A stretch of 45,328 nt of DNA from Salinarchaeum sp. GTDB taxonomy: Archaea; Halobacteriota; Halobacteria; Halobacteriales; QS-1-68-20. Numbering within the stretch: the first letter of the stretch is position 1; each line of letters opens with the position of its first letter. The position numbers and the translations under genes are program-made. Shown here piece by piece: positions 18,965 through 24,026 of the stretch. The notes beneath the pieces are model-generated. The model was not told the origin of the DNA. It saw nothing but the letters and a program-made list of their open reading frames with translations, and searched no databases. The DNA lies in contig SKSS01000095.1 in assembly GCA_007122875.1 (NCBI GenBank), positions 1-45,328 of the forward strand. The letters run 5' to 3'.

Positions 18965-20194
18965 TCAGTGCATCGAGATTGCCGTTGTGGATCGACTGGA
19001 GCCGACGACCGCCAGGAGGTAGAACCCGATTGCAACGACCACGATCGACCCACCCGGCGGGAGGCTCGCGAGGATCGAGAATGTCAGCCCACCGAGTACC
19101 GAGAACTGGCCGAACAGAATCGAGAGAGACAGCGTCTCGCGGAAGCTGGTGGCGATCTGCGACGCCGTCGCCACCGGAACGACCAGCATCGCGGCGACGA
19201 GGATCACGCCCAGAATCTGCATCGCGCCGACGACGACGACGGCCGTCAACACGACCAACAGCGTGTTCTGCAGGTCGACATCGAGTCTGGCGACGCGGGC
19301 GGCCCGCTCGTCGAACGTGATGAACAGCAGCTGTTTGTAGTTGACCGCGACCGCCGCGACGACCGCGACGGTGAGAAGCGCCATCATCCGCGCACCATCC
19401 GCGGTGACGATCGCGAGACTGCCGAAGAGAAAGCCCTCCACGTCGACGGAGATCGGCGCGAACTCGCGTCCCCAGCTGATGAGCAGCGTCCCGACCGCGA
19501 AGGAGCCGCTGAGCACGATCGCGATCGGCACGTCGCCGTAGGAACTCGTGTGCGTGGTCAGCCACTGGAGCCCGAGCGCGACGAGCGCGCTCACGACGAG
19601 TGCGACGAACAGCAGCGAGCCGGTCCAGCCGGTGACGGCGATGACGATCACCCCGACGGCGACGCCCGCGAACGCGGCGTGGGCGAGCGTCTCGCCGATG
19701 AGTGCCATCTGACGGTGGACGAGAAACGCCCCGACCAGTGGGGCAACGACGCCGATGAGGACGCCGGTGGCGACCGCCCGCCAGGTCGAGGGCAGCCAGA
19801 AGACGTTCGTCCCCAGGAAGTGATCGATCCACATGCCGACGACGACGAACTGATCGAACAGCAACCCCGCATACGGCGGAACGAGGGTCCACTCGGGAGC
19901 CATCCGAAGCCAGTCGACGACGATGAACGCGATCATGGCGACGGCGAGGAGTCCGGTGGCTACGATCCCCGCGACCTCGATCCGGTGACGCCACGGGCGC
20001 GTCGCGGTCGTGGTGGGCGATCGATCGTGACCTGATGGGGGATTGCTCACCGTCGGGTCCGAGTTGAGGCCGCCGTCGGCTTCCGGGTCCGAGTCACGAG
20101 TATCGAGTTCCGGTTCCGAGTCGTGCCCGTCGTCGTGGTCAAGTTCCTGACCCTGGTCTGCGCGGTCGTCGGGGGGGTCCGTGCGTTCGGTCAT
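18965..20194 (-). CDS. znuB: metal (Zn/Mn) ABC transporter permease, ABC-3 family, with ~75-aa acidic N-terminal extension
   Basis: 409 aa. ABC-3 permease core (HRQMALIGETLAHAAFAGVAVG..). ATG overlaps the upstream ATPase stop (ATGA). Confidence 0.85.
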   Translation of the reverse strand: MTERTDPPDDRADQGQELDHDDGHDSEPELDTRDSDPEADGGLNSDPTVSNPPSGHDRSPTTTATRPWRHRIEVAGIVATGLLAVAMIAFIVVDWLRMAPEWTLVPPYAGLLFDQFVVVGMWIDHFLGTNVFWLPSTWRAVATGVLIGVVAPLVGAFLVHRQMALIGETLAHAAFAGVAVGVIVIAVTGWTGSLLFVALVVSALVALGLQWLTTHTSSYGDVPIAIVLSGSFAVGTLLISWGREFAPISVDVEGFLFGSLAIVTADGARMMALLTVAVVAAVAVNYKQLLFITFDERAARVARLDVDLQNTLLVVLTAVVVVGAMQILGVILVAAMLVVPVATASQIATSFRETLSLSILFGQFSVLGGLTFSILASLPPGGSIVVVAIGFYLLAVVGSSRSTTAISMH

Positions 20195-20952
20195 GGATGA
20201 TCGTGTTCAAGGATACCGTGTGACGGCCCGTATATCTCGGCGAGTGCGTCGCTTTCGAGGAACGAGACGGTGTCACCGTGGTGGTACAGCGTCCGGTTGA
20301 CGCACGCAACCTTGTTGACGTGCTTGGTGAGAACACCGACATCGTGCTCGATGAGGATGATCGTGATGCCGCGGCGGTTGAGATCGTCGAGCAGGCCGTA
20401 GAACCGATCGCGCGATTCGGCGTCGACGCCGACGGTCGGTTCGTCGAGGGCGAGCAGGTCGGCCTCGGAGGCGAGCGCCCGTGCGATGAACGCTCGCTGG
20501 CGCTGTCCGCCCGACAGGTCGCTGATTCGTCGGTCGCCGAGCGAACGGATGCCGACGGTTTCGAGCGCCGTCGTGACGGCCTCGTGATCCTCGGCGGTGA
20601 GCCGCGACCGACCGGCGTGGGCGAACCGCCCCATCGTCACCACCTCGCGAACCGTGACGGGCATGGCCTCGCCGCGATCGGTCGATCGCTGGGCGACGTA
20701 TCCGATCCGCTCGCCGGCGTCGAAGGTCGACGCCGGTTCGCCGAACAGTTCGACCGACCCGCTGTCCGGCCGGTTGAGTCCGAGCATGAGCTGTAACAGT
20801 GTCGTCTTCCCGGAGCCGTTCGGACCGATCAGCCCGAGGAAGTCGCCGTCCTCGATCGTCAACGAGACGTCCTCGACGGCGACCTTCTCGCCATAGGCGA
20901 ACGTGACGTCCTCGACGGCGACGACGGGGTCGGAACCGTCTGTGGCCGCCAT
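20191..20952 (-). CDS. znuC: metal (Zn/Mn) ABC transporter ATP-binding protein
   Basis: 253 aa from the in-frame ATG at 20952, which overlaps the znuA stop (TGATG). Walker A GPNGSGKTT, LSGGQRQR, LLALDEPT. Confidence 0.85.
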   Translation of the reverse strand: MAATDGSDPVVAVEDVTFAYGEKVAVEDVSLTIEDGDFLGLIGPNGSGKTTLLQLMLGLNRPDSGSVELFGEPASTFDAGERIGYVAQRSTDRGEAMPVTVREVVTMGRFAHAGRSRLTAEDHEAVTTALETVGIRSLGDRRISDLSGGQRQRAFIARALASEADLLALDEPTVGVDAESRDRFYGLLDDLNRRGITIILIEHDVGVLTKHVNKVACVNRTLYHHGDTVSFLESDALAEIYGPSHGILEHDHP

Positions 20953-22355
20953 CACTCTACCCCGAGCGCCGTCCGCAGCGAGGGGAGGTTGATCTCCTCC
21001 ATCTGTTCGACCCACCCGTATCCCTCGTCGCGCCACGCCGGCGTGGTTCCTTCCGCAGGCGTAAGCGGCGCGTAGTCGGTCGCACCCGTGTTCTCGATGA
21101 GCGTCTCGACCGCCGCCGGGACGTCCTCGTCGGGGTCCGGGGCCTCGAAGGGATCGTACAGTATCGTGTCGATGCCGTGCTCCTCGACGACGGCAGCCAG
21201 CTCACCGATGTCTTCCAGCGATTCGGCGGCGTCGGGCGAGACGCCGACCGGCGTGTGGAGTTCGAAGCCGTATCGGGCTTCGAGGTATTGAAACGAGTCG
21301 TGGCCGGCGAACACGGCCACATTCCGATCGGCGTCGTCGACGAGCGCGTCGAACTGTCGGTGGACCTCCTGAACTCGCTCGGTGTACGCTTCTGCGTTCT
21401 CCTCGAACGCGTCCACGTTGTCGGGATCGAGTTCGGCGAGTTCGCCCGTGATCTCGTCGATCACGTCCTGGGCCAGCACGGGATCGACCCAGACGTGCGG
21501 GTCGTAGAACTCGTCGATCTCGTCGTCAGTCTCCTCGACGACCGACACGGTGATGTCGTCGTCCGAGGTGTCGAAGACGATGTCGTCACCGTCCCGCAGT
21601 TCGAAGACGACGAGGGTCTGTCCGTCGTCCTCACCGTGGAACTCGACGTGGTCGCCGTGGGATTCGATTTCGACGATTCCGTCGGGTGCGCCGTCGGCGA
21701 GCCTCGCGGCGATTTGGAACGCCCCGTCCTCGCCGAGCGGTGGAACGCGGCCGTCCGCGTCCTCAACGTGGACGTCGAGCGCGATATGTCCGTCGAGTGG
21801 TACGTCAGGAATCCCGCCGTGCCAGTGGTCGTCGTGCCAGTATGCGGCGACCTCGTCCGTCCGGGGATCGATGATCTCGAACTCGGCCGGGGTGAACTCC
21901 TCCGGGTCGAACTCGTGATCGTCGTCCGGTTCCGTTCGTTCCTCGTCGGCTCCCTGAAACGCGAGGAGATCCTCAGACGAGATCCCCGCCATCCCGTCGA
22001 TCACGGCCACGTCGTCGTGATCGGCTTCGAGTTCGGCGGCGAGATCCTGCGCCCACGAGAACTCCGGGGTATCGAGGTAGACGAACGCGTCCGTCGAGGC
22101 GACCCGGGAGACGATGTCGCCGTCGGGTTCCCACCCGTGACCCATCTCACCCGCTTCGACCGGGTTCTCGAACTCGAAGGCGTCGCCAGCGATCTCGGTC
22201 GTCCAGTCCCACAGCGCGAAGAACGCCGCATATCCGGTCCGATTCCCATCGTCCGAGTCGTCGCCTCCCCCCGGCTCGTCCAGACAGCCGGCGAGCGTTC
22301 CCAGCGCCGCTGCTCCCGCCCCATGCCTGAGCATCGAACGCCGTGTCAGCTTCAT
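20952..22355 (-). CDS. znuA: ZnuA/TroA-type (cluster A-I) metal-binding lipoprotein with ~115-aa inserted His-rich domain
   Basis: 467 aa. Tat signal plus lipobox (RRSMLRHGAGAAALGTLAGC). SBP ligand motifs MGHGWEP, YDPHVWVDP, AGHDSFQYL. The insertion at aa ~158-273 carries HDDHWH and HGDHVEFH. Confidence 0.85.
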   Translation of the reverse strand: MKLTRRSMLRHGAGAAALGTLAGCLDEPGGGDDSDDGNRTGYAAFFALWDWTTEIAGDAFEFENPVEAGEMGHGWEPDGDIVSRVASTDAFVYLDTPEFSWAQDLAAELEADHDDVAVIDGMAGISSEDLLAFQGADEERTEPDDDHEFDPEEFTPAEFEIIDPRTDEVAAYWHDDHWHGGIPDVPLDGHIALDVHVEDADGRVPPLGEDGAFQIAARLADGAPDGIVEIESHGDHVEFHGEDDGQTLVVFELRDGDDIVFDTSDDDITVSVVEETDDEIDEFYDPHVWVDPVLAQDVIDEITGELAELDPDNVDAFEENAEAYTERVQEVHRQFDALVDDADRNVAVFAGHDSFQYLEARYGFELHTPVGVSPDAAESLEDIGELAAVVEEHGIDTILYDPFEAPDPDEDVPAAVETLIENTGATDYAPLTPAEGTTPAWRDEGYGWVEQMEEINLPSLRTALGVE

Positions 22356-22483
22356 GGCGATCAGTCGGTCCCCATCGACTAAAAGTGTTATTATTTTCCC
22401 GATTGTGGTTAATAAGACGTGATTGTTTCCGAGGTCGTGTTAGTAAGGTGTTCGGCCCCGGTCCCCGCCCCCGAGCGCCGTGT

Positions 22484-23806
22484 TCAGCCCTCGATCACGA
22501 CTACCTCGATCGGGGCGGTCTCGTAGTCGACGTGATCGTCGTGGTACAGCTGGAAGACGACCTCGGTCTCGCCTTCCTCCTCGCCGATGATGTGGACGTG
22601 GTCGCCGTGGTAGTCGAACGAGACGATGTCGTCCGCACCCTCGGCGAGAGCGACCCGAAGCTCGTATTCGTCACCGAGCGGAATCTCGTTGCCGTCCTCG
22701 TCCTCGAAGACTGCCCCGAGCGAGACGTTGTCATCGACCGGCACCTCGGGCAGTTCGCCGTGCCAGTGGTCGTCGTGGTGATCGGCGACCTCCTCGTGGG
22801 GGTCGTGGGCCCGGTCAAGGATGTGGACGTCGGCGATCGCGTCGGCGTCGTGGTCACCCTCCTCGTCCGGGTCGGCCGAGACCTGTGCCACGATCGCCGG
22901 CGTCTCGTAGTCGACGTGGTCGTCGTGATACAGCTGGAAAACGACCTCGGTCACTCCCTCCTCCTCCCCGATGACGTGGACGTGGTCGCCGTGATAGTCG
23001 AACGAGACCACGTCCTCCGGTGCTCCCTCGGCGAGATCCACCCGGAGTTCGTACTCGCCGTTCATGACGATCTCGTCGCCCTCGTCGTCCTCGATTGTGG
23101 CTCCGAGCGAGACGGTGTCGTCGAGCGGAATCACGGGAAGATCGCCGTGCCAGTGGTCGTCGTGGACGTACGCGACCGTCTCGTGGGGATCATACGCCCG
23201 GTCGAGGATCTCGAACTCGGCCACGGAGCCGTGGTCGTCCTCGCCTTCATCGCTCACCTGAACGGTGATCGCGTCGGTCTGATAGTCAGCGTGATCGCCG
23301 TGCCACACCAGGAAGACGATCTCAGTTACGCCTTCCTCCTCGCCGATGATGTGGACGTGGTCGCCGTGGTAGTCGAACGAGACGACCGAGTCGTCGGCTC
23401 CCGCGGCGACCGCGGCTTTGAGTTCGTACTCGTCGCCGAGTTCGATCTCGTCACCGCCCTCGTCCTCGACGTACGCCCCGAGCGAGACGGTGTCCCCCGG
23501 TGGAACGGTCGGGAGGCTTCCGTGCCAGTGGTCGTCGTGCATGTACGCCACCTCTTCGTGGGGGTCGTGTGCGCGATCGAGAATCTCGAACTCGCCGATC
23601 CCAATCTCGTCGAAGTGCCCGTCTTGCACCTCGTCGGCGGGGTCGTGGTCGTCGTGGTCGTGATCGTGATCGTCGTGGTCGTCACCATCGTCGTCCGGTG
23701 TCGCCTCGTCGTCGTCGCCGAGACAGCCGGCGAGGCTGAACAGTGCGACCGATCCCGATACTGCGAGGAGCTTCCGTCGCGTCGCGAACTTCGCGTCACG
23801 TTCCAT
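22484..23806 (-). CDS. Tat lipoprotein with three tandem His-rich (HxxHxH) domains, putative extracytoplasmic zinc-binding protein
   Basis: 440 aa. Signal TRRKLLAVSGSVALFSLAGC, then a DHDDHDHDHDDHD linker, then 3 repeats each containing HDDHWH, HGDHVH and a further His patch (WHGDHADY in repeat 1, YHDDHVDY in repeats 2-3). Co-directional, 128 bp upstream of znuA. Confidence 0.8.
   Translation of the reverse strand: MERDAKFATRRKLLAVSGSVALFSLAGCLGDDDEATPDDDGDDHDDHDHDHDDHDPADEVQDGHFDEIGIGEFEILDRAHDPHEEVAYMHDDHWHGSLPTVPPGDTVSLGAYVEDEGGDEIELGDEYELKAAVAAGADDSVVSFDYHGDHVHIIGEEEGVTEIVFLVWHGDHADYQTDAITVQVSDEGEDDHGSVAEFEILDRAYDPHETVAYVHDDHWHGDLPVIPLDDTVSLGATIEDDEGDEIVMNGEYELRVDLAEGAPEDVVSFDYHGDHVHVIGEEEGVTEVVFQLYHDDHVDYETPAIVAQVSADPDEEGDHDADAIADVHILDRAHDPHEEVADHHDDHWHGELPEVPVDDNVSLGAVFEDEDGNEIPLGDEYELRVALAEGADDIVSFDYHGDHVHIIGEEEGETEVVFQLYHDDHVDYETAPIEVVVIEG
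22487..23593 (-). repeat. three tandem in-frame coding repeats (~345-387 bp each)
   Basis: Repeat 1 at 23219-23593, repeat 2 at 22832-23218, repeat 3 at 22487-22831. Each starts (E/D)(F/V)(E/H)ILDRA.DPHE.VA..HDDHWHG. Confidence 0.85.
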
Positions 23807-24026
23807 TAGTATTCACCAGTCCTGTGTTGAGAAGGCTTACTAATTAATATTCCGATCTTATTAACTACTGCTAATATCTCTGAGGTCGTTCACTACGAGA
23901 CTCACGAGCGCCTCCAGTCTGTGTTTTCGTAGTCGAAGGCCATCCGACTGGAAACCGATGATCGATGGAGGCCAACGCTCGTTTCCGGGTCGTTCCGTTA
24001 GAGTGAAACCCTGAGCGGCCGAACCG

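Follow-up and report, generated by a model that had tools for sequence, protein, structure and literature searches.

[quoted passage not shown] That role is still termed 'poorly defined' (PMC7858048). In the AdcA crystal, 14 residues of the loop are invisible; a folded accessory domain of this zinc SBP, joined to it covalently and itself able to bind zinc, helps to recruit the metal when zinc is restricted (PMC7858048). Zinc recruitment by a partner protein is exemplified by PhtD, whose HxxHxH motif (His83, His86 and His88, together with Glu63) binds zinc that is passed on to AdcAII, the gene for which lies in an operon with phtD (PMC3842936). AztD and ZinT, which bind zinc outside the cytoplasm, pass it on to a cluster A-I SBP (PMC6689063).

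Here we describe a haloarchaeal ZnuA encoded in a 45,328-nucleotide stretch of DNA (the whole stretch that was analysed, hereafter the window), and use computational analysis to establish the homology, position, fold and conservation of a domain inserted in this protein, together with its evolutionary interchange with His-rich loops. In the part of the literature that was covered, neither a ZnuA with a folded insert nor an archaeal His-triad protein was found.

Results

The znuA gene and its operon

ZnuA matches PF01297 over residues 43-437 at 138.6 bits (Pfam scan; cut-off 29). Its full-length AF2 model has a pLDDT of 87.6, and in this model helices 292-341 connect the two lobes, the two-lobe and long-helix arrangement expected of a cluster A-I SBP (Table 1). 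Among 78 homologues, residues R5, R6 and C24 of the putative export signal vary hardly or not at all, and the Pfam TAT_signal match is sub-threshold only (E 0.06). Directly downstream of znuA, on the same strand, lie the PF00005 and PF00950 genes of the transporter, and the same genome encodes a second Zn-type SBP operon, which is loop-less. The equivalog cut-offs of NCBIfam are all missed by ZnuA (38.5 versus 268 for NF007091, 73.8 versus 700 for NF033605 and 74.8 versus 350 for NF040870), and these ZnuA/AdcA/AztC models match its C-terminal half only. Relative to them, the protein represents a distinct subfamily.

Table 1 Features of the znuA locus, with positions in the window
Feature	Position	Strand	Basis
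znuB, ABC-3 permease	18965..20194	-	PF00950, 180.7 bits
znuC, ABC ATPase	20191..21036	-	PF00005, 108 bits
znuA, cluster A-I metal substrate-binding lipoprotein with inserted domain	20952..22355	-	467 aa; PF01297, AF2, Foldseek
Inter-lobe helix and C-lobe, residues 284-467; H287 (21495-21497), H352 (21300-21302), E435 (21051-21053)	20955..21506	-	Conservation and alignment
Acidic C-terminal linker, residues 274-283, EETDDEIDEF	21507..21536	-	pLDDT
Inserted His-triad beta-sandwich domain, residues 158-273	21537..21884	-	Homology to repeats, AF2 fold
Second, decayed His cluster H233-G-D-H236-V-E238-F-H240	21636..21659	-	Conservation
H174-D-D-H177-W178-H179 triad, beta2-beta3 hairpin, putative accessory zinc site	21819..21836	-	Conservation, AF2 strands
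Acidic N-terminal linker, residues 133-157, GADEERTEPDDDHEFDPEEFTPA	21885..21959	-	Lower pLDDT; aligns with His/Glu-rich loop of YcdH/AdcA
SBP N-lobe, residues 39-132, including first metal ligand H73 (22137-22139)	21960..22241	-	H73 invariant; aligned with YcdH/AdcA ligand His
Tat-type signal and lipobox (MKLTRRSML...LAGC, residues 1-24)	22284..22355	-	Read from sequence
Upstream lipoprotein, three free domain copies (23243-23599, 22868-23224, 22487-22837), N-terminal DDHDDHDHDHDDHD tract	22484..23806	-	BLASTP

Across the 78 homologues the metal ligands H73, H287 and H352 never vary, and E435 is kept in at least 90%; in the alignment with YcdH and AdcA, the last three fall at the ligand positions DPHVW, HxxFxY and PLE. 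Judged from the alignment, this set of three His and one Glu is of the zinc type. Mn/Fe-type A-I proteins use two His and two carboxylates as ligands. His-triad sites such as that of the inserted domain have no intrinsic zinc specificity, which would allow a system that handles Ni, Co, Cu or Mn recruited by the triad domain; we regard this as very unlikely, given the three His and one Glu of the primary site, the zinc SBPs (AdcA, AdcAII, YcdH, Lbp and AztC) that are the best structure and sequence matches, and the orthologues without the insert, which carry a His/Asp/Glu loop typical of zinc-specific SBPs.

Position and predicted fold of the insert

The original prediction, made from the sequence alone, described an insert of ~115 aa between MGHGWEP (residues 71-77) and YDPHVWVDP (residues 284-292), took its site to be that of the classical His-rich loop, and suggested that it was a whole folded domain homologous to each repeat of a free triple-repeat protein next door. 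All of this stood up to the analyses that follow. The insert, encoded on the minus strand at 21537-21884, comprises residues 158-273 (EFEIIDPRTDEVAAYWHDDHWHGGIPDVPLDG...VEIESHGDHVEFHGEDDGQTLVVFEL...ITVSVV), with the ligands H73 and H287 on either side. When ZnuA was compared with the PDB by phmmer, residues 33-148 aligned with YcdH 16-125 and residues 279-464 with YcdH 125-300, and AdcA aligned alike. These alignments set the insertion point, placing ~130 additional residues exactly at the His/Glu-rich loop site of YcdH and AdcA, between H73 and H287. A flexible low-complexity His-rich loop is absent between the first and second ligands of ZnuA; the folded domain takes up its site, and all that is left of the loop is a short acidic stretch containing one His (DDDHE).

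Foldseek superposition of the full AF2 model gave TM scores by target of 0.85-0.91 to AdcA, AdcAII, YcdH, Lbp, AztC and TroA, AdcA being the best, while the TM score by query was ~0.5 with half of ZnuA covered (~428 alignment columns against targets of ~265 residues). Because the solved SBPs are covered almost fully but the query only by half, the insert lies outside the SBP fold. That the segment might be an ordinary part of this fold, an objection raised together with the original prediction, is ruled out by the phmmer alignment to PDB chains and by a superposition in which the SBP core matches and the insert is left over.

Modelled alone, the domain is all-beta with a pLDDT of 95.6 and a pTM of 0.87, and its predicted fold is an 11-strand Ig-like beta-sandwich. 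Confidence is lower in the linker regions, where pLDDT averages 63 for residues 131-140 and 72 for residues 271-280. We conclude from these models that the insert is predicted to fold autonomously as a domain of about 116 aa, with an acidic linker tethering it at either end. Against the PDB, Foldseek returned generic Ig-like neighbours of the domain (S-layer, Rib and filamin; best TM 0.4-0.5), and with viral models included the matches were again confined to Ig-like, Rib, filamin and BIG2 folds at TM 0.4-0.5, with no specific structural ancestor among the PDB and viral models.

The domain family and its history

BLASTP with compositional adjustment aligned the insert with every one of the upstream lipoprotein's three repeats, at 43-44% identity and E values of 1e-22, 2e-21 and 1e-15. 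Over all comparisons, identity is 42-44% between the insert and the repeats and 69-73% among the repeats themselves. The Smith-Waterman scores are 232-238, whereas 1000 shuffles gave 39-43 ± 8 (z = 24-25), and because the similarity survives both compositional adjustment and shuffling, the explanation that it is merely compositional is ruled out. No Pfam or NCBIfam family was found for either the lipoprotein or the insert, with sub-threshold noise only (TOBE_2, T2SS pilus N). A sequence search of the PDB with the lipoprotein gave 0 matches, and a profile built from 141 copies of the domain, which scores the insert at E 3e-50, gave a single 30-residue chance match in the PDB (E 0.016). Among 1.84 billion proteins the family amounts to 421 clusters at 50% identity. 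The domain thus has no Pfam, NCBIfam or PDB relative, and appears to constitute a small undescribed family that is also found as free repeated surface lipoproteins.

The domain is present in 71 of 401 sampled Halobacteria genomes, mostly of haloalkaliphiles, although its link to soda lakes and alkaline habitats is suggested by organism names and general knowledge. It occurs almost only inside or beside ZnuA genes. With N and C denoting the SBP lobes and D the domain, the architectures are N-D-C (121), N-DD-C (10), N-DDD-C, N-D-C-D (8), N-DD-C-D and a circularly permuted C-N-D-D, so that some relatives have two or three copies in the loop position or a copy at the C-terminus; the permutant keeps the junction of N-lobe and domain. 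At the insert site, low-complexity loops of the HDHE type are found in four orthologues, those of Halobiforma haloterrestris, Halovenus marina, Saliphagus infecundisoli and a Natronomonas MAG. These orthologues are nested inside the insert-bearing clade, with SH-aLRT values of 97-99 for three of the four sister relations and of 92 for the Saliphagus node, and represent four independent replacements of the domain by a classical HDE-rich loop. Since close orthologues carry the classical loop at the same site, domain and His-rich loop are evolutionarily interchangeable.

Domain shuffling within the locus, which the original prediction had also proposed, holds in part. In the domain tree, a long-branched clade of their own (100*) unites the single inserts, and the grouping of the window's insert with the three repeats of its neighbour is rejected by an AU test (lnL difference 101, p 0.001). 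A recent copy from the neighbouring gene is ruled out by these trees and this test, and the insert is old, with no recent event in the locus. At the level of the family, however, shuffling is real, because the loop position holds one to three copies, the domain also occurs at the C-terminus, one form is circularly permuted and four orthologues have reverted to a loop. The domain has been coupled to ZnuA repeatedly and independently.

Of 78 ZnuA genes, 45 are preceded by the heptamer TTAATAA/TTATTAA, as are 28 of 51 free-domain genes, and the heptamer is present in 26% of equally AT-rich control windows. This enrichment is only suggestive of a shared operator, and the heptamer may instead be a TATA-like element.

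A conserved His triad

Within 76 ZnuA inserts, H174, H177 and W178 are each 100% conserved and H179 is 92% conserved, and the triad falls on the hairpin of the AF2 strands 168-174 and 177-180. Of the His clusters present in the free copies, the second and third are degraded in the inserts; for the second cluster, the three His are conserved at 85, 85 and 57% in free copies versus 39, 45 and 7% in inserts. Foldseek neighbours restricted to S-layer, Rib, filamin and BIG2-type Ig-like domains could be taken to mean that the insert is a purely structural spacer or cell-envelope contact, its histidines reflecting the acidic, His-rich composition of the locus. We find this highly improbable, since H174, H177, W178 and H179 are 92-100% conserved against a mean column identity of ~40%, and since the domain has repeatedly been exchanged with metal-binding low-complexity loops and is almost confined to ZnuA genes and their neighbours.

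Several positions are nearly invariant in the inserts and not so in the free copies, namely W173 (88%), P183 (100%), P206/L207/G208 (95-96%) and A217 (93%). Such positions suggest a specialised surface, and in more than half of 74 insert-bearing loci the gene immediately upstream of ZnuA encodes the free domain. The insert might then be mainly a docking module, in which homotypic pairing with the copies of the free lipoprotein holds this scavenger on the SBP and the insert's own histidines are not a transfer site; the shared fold of both partners and their conserved adjacency would fit. We nevertheless judge this improbable, as ~30 of the 74 insert-bearing loci have no adjoining free-domain gene, the genome studied here holds four domain copies only (the ZnuA insert and the three lipoprotein repeats), and the most conserved residues of the insert are the His/His/Trp/His of the triad themselves.

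Discussion

We propose that the insert is probably a tethered zinc-capture and hand-off module of ZnuA. We take the protein to be a Tat-exported, lipid-anchored, zinc-type cluster A-I SBP with a His3-Glu site and a folded domain in place of the flexible His-rich loop. We infer that the H-x-x-H-W-H hairpin, which is nearly invariant, most probably provides a pre-organised accessory site for zinc, which would take the metal from the medium or, in partnership, from the free multi-copy lipoprotein and would pass it to the primary H73/H287/H352/E435 site, whereupon ZnuBC would import the metal. The insert would then be a built-in counterpart of the zinc-recruiting accessories represented by His-rich loops, ZinT and Pht proteins. 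The four nested orthologues with a loop support the view that domain and His-rich loop may be functionally equivalent. It should be noted that the Ig-like sandwich is generic and that such folds are often merely structural, which counts against a role in capture, as does the dispensability of His-rich loops in several systems, for example upon deletion of the ZrgA loop (PMC9820375).

The location of the domain by the metal cleft and its conserved triad would suit a sensor as well as a chaperone. As a regulatory element, the domain would bind zinc only when it is plentiful, and would then obstruct the primary site or keep ZnuA from docking to ZnuB and so throttle import, a hypothesis on record for loop-bearing zinc proteins, including some His-rich loops and PA4063 (PMC9820375). 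This seems unlikely to us, because it leaves unexplained the free multi-copy neighbour, the extra C-terminal copies and the two or three tandem copies in the loop position, all of which look like devices for capacity or avidity. The enrichment in soda-lake lineages, a habitat read from names, also points the other way, to zinc that is scarce rather than in excess.

Returning to zinc capture, this lineage offers a natural experiment, in which a disordered HDE loop and a folded single-site domain occupy one site in close orthologues, while in other relatives the domain is multiplied, stands at the C-terminus or has the chain permuted around it. A comparison of these variants would give a direct test of the accessory as a zinc antenna, and of the benefit of a pre-organised site. 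As a tentative extension, about which we are in some doubt, the folded HxxHWH domain may be a pre-organised, higher-affinity substitute for the loop, selected where high pH, carbonate or sulfide tie up zinc, as in soda lakes, and all of the swapped accessories may be tethered zinc antennae for the primary site. If this is true, an antenna role common to the natural swaps (domain or loop, one to three copies, C-terminus, circular permutant) would settle the disputed function of the His-rich loop. The locus also adds an undescribed metal-associated domain family, without a Pfam or PDB entry.

Comparison with known zinc-recruiting systems

The insert sits at the same site as the His-rich loop of E. 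coli and Synechocystis ZnuA, B. subtilis YcdH, P. denitrificans AztC and the N-domain of AdcA, between the first and second ligand His, and it shares with that loop a high content of His, Asp and Glu. The classical loop, however, is short to medium in length, of low complexity and disordered, whereas the insert is predicted to be a 116-aa, 11-strand fold with one fixed HxxHWH site. With S. pneumoniae AdcA, a fusion of ZnuA-like and ZinT-like parts, it shares the principle of a zinc SBP with a covalent folded accessory domain, and the N-D-C-D relatives carry the domain C-terminally just as AdcA carries its ZinT-like domain. In AdcA the accessory is ZinT-like and appended, while here it is unrelated to ZinT and inserted within the SBP chain at the loop: the ZinT family is absent from the Pfam and NCBIfam scans of ZnuA, and Foldseek of the domain returned Ig-like folds only. 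AztD and ZinT are separate proteins with other folds, a beta-propeller and a lipocalin-like fold respectively; neither was related to the domain by profile search of the PDB or by Foldseek.

The Pht proteins (PhtA/B/D/E) with AdcAII likewise present HxxHxH on beta-strands, the corresponding motif here being HDDHWH (residues 174-179). In both cases multi-copy surface lipoproteins are encoded beside a zinc SBP, and the second, loop-less operon of the genome studied here resembles AdcAII. The domain described here is a 116-aa Ig-like sandwich, in contrast to the Pht unit, which is a short element of three strands, and Pht motifs are not known from within an SBP chain. Pht homology was not seen at the level of PF04270 (no match at E<=1), nor was any Pht chain recovered in the PDB profile search or by Foldseek. 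Because no relation of the domain to Pht, ZinT or AztD could be detected, the analogy to these systems rests on a short motif and genomic context. Overall, the locus provides an archaeal counterpart to two arrangements known in bacterial pathogens, AdcA/ZinT and PhtD/AdcAII.

An inserted domain at the His-rich-loop position

The znu locus comprises four genes, all on the minus strand. ZnuA begins with a twin-arginine signal and lipobox (MKLTRRSML...LAGC), in which R5, R6 and C24 vary little or not at all between homologues. The alignment of homologues shows no variation at H73, H287 and H352 and very little at E435; these ligand positions correspond to the His3-Glu set characteristic of zinc-type members of cluster A-I. 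The protein scores below the NCBIfam equivalog cut-offs for ZnuA, AdcA and AztC alike; it belongs to the cluster A-I zinc substrate-binding proteins (SBPs), without their classical loop.

Features of the znu locus (window coordinates)
Feature	Position	Strand	Length or residues	Remark
Lipoprotein	22484-23806	-	440 aa	upstream of znuA
Low-complexity tract of lipoprotein	23640-23690		residues ~40-55	DDDGDDHDDHDHDHDDHD, mature N-terminus
ZnuA	20952-22355	-	467 aa	PF01297, 138.6 bits (cut-off 29)
Insert in ZnuA	21537-21884	-	residues 158-273	translation agrees with the strings quoted in the original prediction
ABC ATPase	20191-21036	-		PF00005
ABC-3 permease	18965-20194	-		PF00950
AT-rich element 5' of znuA	22395-22425			9-mer GTTAATAAG
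AT-rich element 5' of lipoprotein gene	23845-23875			9-mer GTTAATAAG, opposite orientation

A phmmer search against PDB sequences split ZnuA in two, with residues 33-148 aligned to YcdH 16-125 and residues 279-464 to YcdH 125-300; AdcA gave the same two-part alignment. The His/Glu-rich loops of these proteins (e.g., YcdH EEEHEEHDHGEHE) align with the acidic ADEERTEPDDDHE immediately N-terminal of the insert, indicating that ~130 residues were added exactly at the loop. Together with the classical loops found at the same site in insert-less orthologues, this places the insert where it had been predicted from the sequence.

In an AlphaFold2 model of full ZnuA built from 78 homologues (mean pLDDT 87.6, pTM 0.79), residues 158-273 form eleven beta-strands (pLDDT 83-97), flanked by acidic linkers of lower confidence (63 in block 131-140, 72 in block 271-280). 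Foldseek matched this model to AdcA, YcdH, Lbp, AdcAII, AztC and TroA in the PDB, with TM scores of 0.85-0.91 by target but only about 0.5 by query (~428 alignment columns, targets of ~265 residues). These scores speak against the segment being an ordinary part of the SBP fold: as modelled, the core of ZnuA accounts for an entire SBP, and the insert lies outside it as an extra. Modelled alone from an alignment of 141 copies, the insert is all-beta (pLDDT 95.6, pTM 0.87), in agreement with the proposal that a whole folded domain is present.

The domain family is small and undescribed. It had no match in Pfam, NCBIfam, or PDB sequence and profile searches, with Pht (PF04270), ZinT and AztD absent from the Pfam, NCBIfam and PDB matches, and Foldseek returned only generic Ig-like sandwiches (S-layer SbsC domains, Rib, filamin, phage BIG2; TM 0.4-0.5). 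When 1.84 billion representative proteins were searched with the profile, only 421 clusters emerged at E<=1e-3 (63 at E<=1e-30), many of them single-domain lipoproteins of 150-200 aa, some with bacterial-type signal peptides.

Relationship to the upstream repeats

The insert was said to align along its length with every repeat of the upstream lipoprotein, and BLASTP with compositional adjustment bears this out: all three align with it across the full 116 aa at 43-44% identity (E = 1e-22, 2e-21 and 1e-15). Local alignment scores were 232-238 against 39-43 +/- 8 when the insert was shuffled 1000 times (z = 24-25), which demonstrates homology and rules out a merely compositional, acidic and His-rich resemblance. 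The free repeats are 69-73% identical among themselves, so that of the four copies, the only ones in this assembly (a MAG, 60% complete), the insert stands apart.

Comparison of 76 ZnuA inserts with 65 free copies revealed different patterns of conservation. H174/H177/W178/H179, which lie at the beta2-turn-beta3 hairpin of the full model (strands 168-174 and 177-180), are kept in 100/100/100/92% of inserts versus 89/86/100/52% of free copies. H233/H236/H238 (HGDHVH) are found in 39/45/7% versus 85/85/57%, and H255/H258 in 29/7% versus 66/63%, while W173, P183, P206-L207-G208 and A217 are near-invariant specifically in inserts. These patterns mark the insert as a single-site specialisation of the domain, which carries as many as three His clusters when free.

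Besides its three folded domains, the lipoprotein also has a classical His-rich metal-binding stretch at its mature N-terminus (DDDGDDHDDHDHDHDDHD). The AT-rich elements upstream of the lipoprotein gene and znuA share a 9-mer, and among relatives the heptamer TTAATAA/TTATTAA precedes ZnuA genes in 45 of 78 cases and free-domain genes in 28 of 51, compared with 26% of AT-rich control windows. The motif may serve as a shared promoter or operator.

Distribution and exchange of domain and loop

With one genome taken for each species, a locus scan yielded 78 loci, 74 with a domain-carrying ZnuA, mainly from Natrialbaceae, Natronomonas, alkaliphilic Halorubrum species and soda-lake MAGs. More than half of these 74 have a gene directly upstream that encodes one or two free copies. 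The domain is a minority, lineage-restricted feature, present in 71 of 401 genomes and 26 of 91 genera of an even sample of Halobacteria.

In domain trees, single inserts form one clade apart from all free copies (SH-aLRT 83 in the loci set; 100*, branch 0.86, in the protein set), and a tree in which the window's insert groups with the three repeats of the adjacent lipoprotein was rejected by an AU test (lnL difference 101, p 0.001). The insertion is therefore ancient and inherited vertically with ZnuA; a recent copy from the neighbouring gene is ruled out. The domain shuffling proposed for this locus thus stands as an ancient, family-wide event and falls as a recent, local one.

On a ZnuA core tree, from which the insert was excluded, each of four insert-less proteins is nested within the insert-bearing clade. 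Those of Halobiforma haloterrestris, Halovenus marina and a Natronomonas MAG are sisters to insert-bearing proteins (support 97-99), and the fourth is from Saliphagus infecundisoli (support 92). All four have classical low-complexity His/Asp/Glu loops at the insert site (e.g., HDHDHDHEDEDEHDHEDEEDEHDHEEE..., GGHDHADHDHGSGDHGEGEDHEGDH...), indicating at least four independent exchanges of the folded domain for a loop and providing the strongest support for functional equivalence of the two.

The H. haloterrestris protein (L074:6001-7128) has a ~60-aa HDHE-rich loop, while its neighbour on the core tree, from H. nitratireducens (locus L023), has the folded domain, and nature thus offers the two as a swap pair. 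The loop-bearing species is neutrophilic and the domain-bearing one alkaliphilic, which would fit a possible link to habitat. Such natural swaps between domain and loop open the role of the His-rich loop to direct testing.

Other architectures

With N and C denoting the SBP N-lobe and C-half and D the domain, the retrieved proteins include 121 N-D-C, 10 N-DD-C, one N-DDD-C (Halorubrum gandharaense), eight N-D-C-D and one N-DD-C-D. N-DD-C originated at no fewer than three points of the domain tree, its two copies usually being sisters, which indicates tandem duplication. The N-D-C-D proteins (P0152, L079:1051-2694, and seven similar ones), encoded in znuABC operons, have one domain in the loop and a second appended C-terminally. 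This recalls the two-accessory layout of AdcA with its appended ZinT-like domain, although the domain differs.

Three proteins (P0191, P0196 and P0199) are circular permutants in which the C-half precedes the N-lobe and two domains. By BLASTP, P0191 (L080:443-2146) starts at DPHVWMSP straight after a membrane anchor, continues from the DPHVW helix and C-lobe into the N-lobe and two His-triad domains, and ends past the second. The cut falls exactly between the domain and ligand 2, preserving the N-lobe-to-domain junction. The P0191 gene directly follows that of a DtxR-like metal regulator and has ZnuC and ZnuB downstream. To our knowledge, no circular permutant has been described for a cluster A-I SBP.

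That domain and SBP were coupled several times independently argues for the two working together, with the domain beside the metal site. The multi-copy and fusion patterns are less well explained by a sensor or throttle, and likewise by homotypic docking; a metal other than zinc or a purely structural role also fits these patterns less well.

Proteins of ~760-970 aa with one or two domain copies are encoded upstream, at a distance of a few kb, of a second ZnuA paralogue that carries the insert (L014:852-3713, L060:2996-5665, L060:9445-11736 and G040:C1:2039303), the one in L014 with additional CARDB and CarboxypepD_reg domains. They are possibly large surface scavengers.

Proposed role and known systems

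Based on our findings, the best-supported reading is that the insert would act as a tethered zinc-capture and hand-off module, all of the metal steps being inferred. The folded domain at the loop site would be an accessory of ZnuA with a putative zinc role, in which the HxxHWH histidines, probably with a carboxylate or water, may provide a pre-organised zinc site. The upstream lipoprotein, with its three domains and N-terminal DDHDDHDHDHDDHD tract, would serve as a surface scavenger.

The same genome encodes a second zinc-type (His3-Glu) PF01297 SBP of 331 aa (L082:2051-3046, equal to G000:C58:17550-18545), with neither His-rich loop nor insert, in its own SBP-ATPase-permease operon. This pair, one with the insert and one loop-less, resembles pneumococcal AdcA and AdcAII. 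Zinc is bound in PhtD by His83/86/88 and Glu63 and passes from PhtD to AdcAII, phtD being in one operon with adcAII (PMC3842936). We liken the putative HxxHWH site to that of PhtD and propose that the insert, though a member of neither family, works in the manner of the Pht or ZinT accessories.
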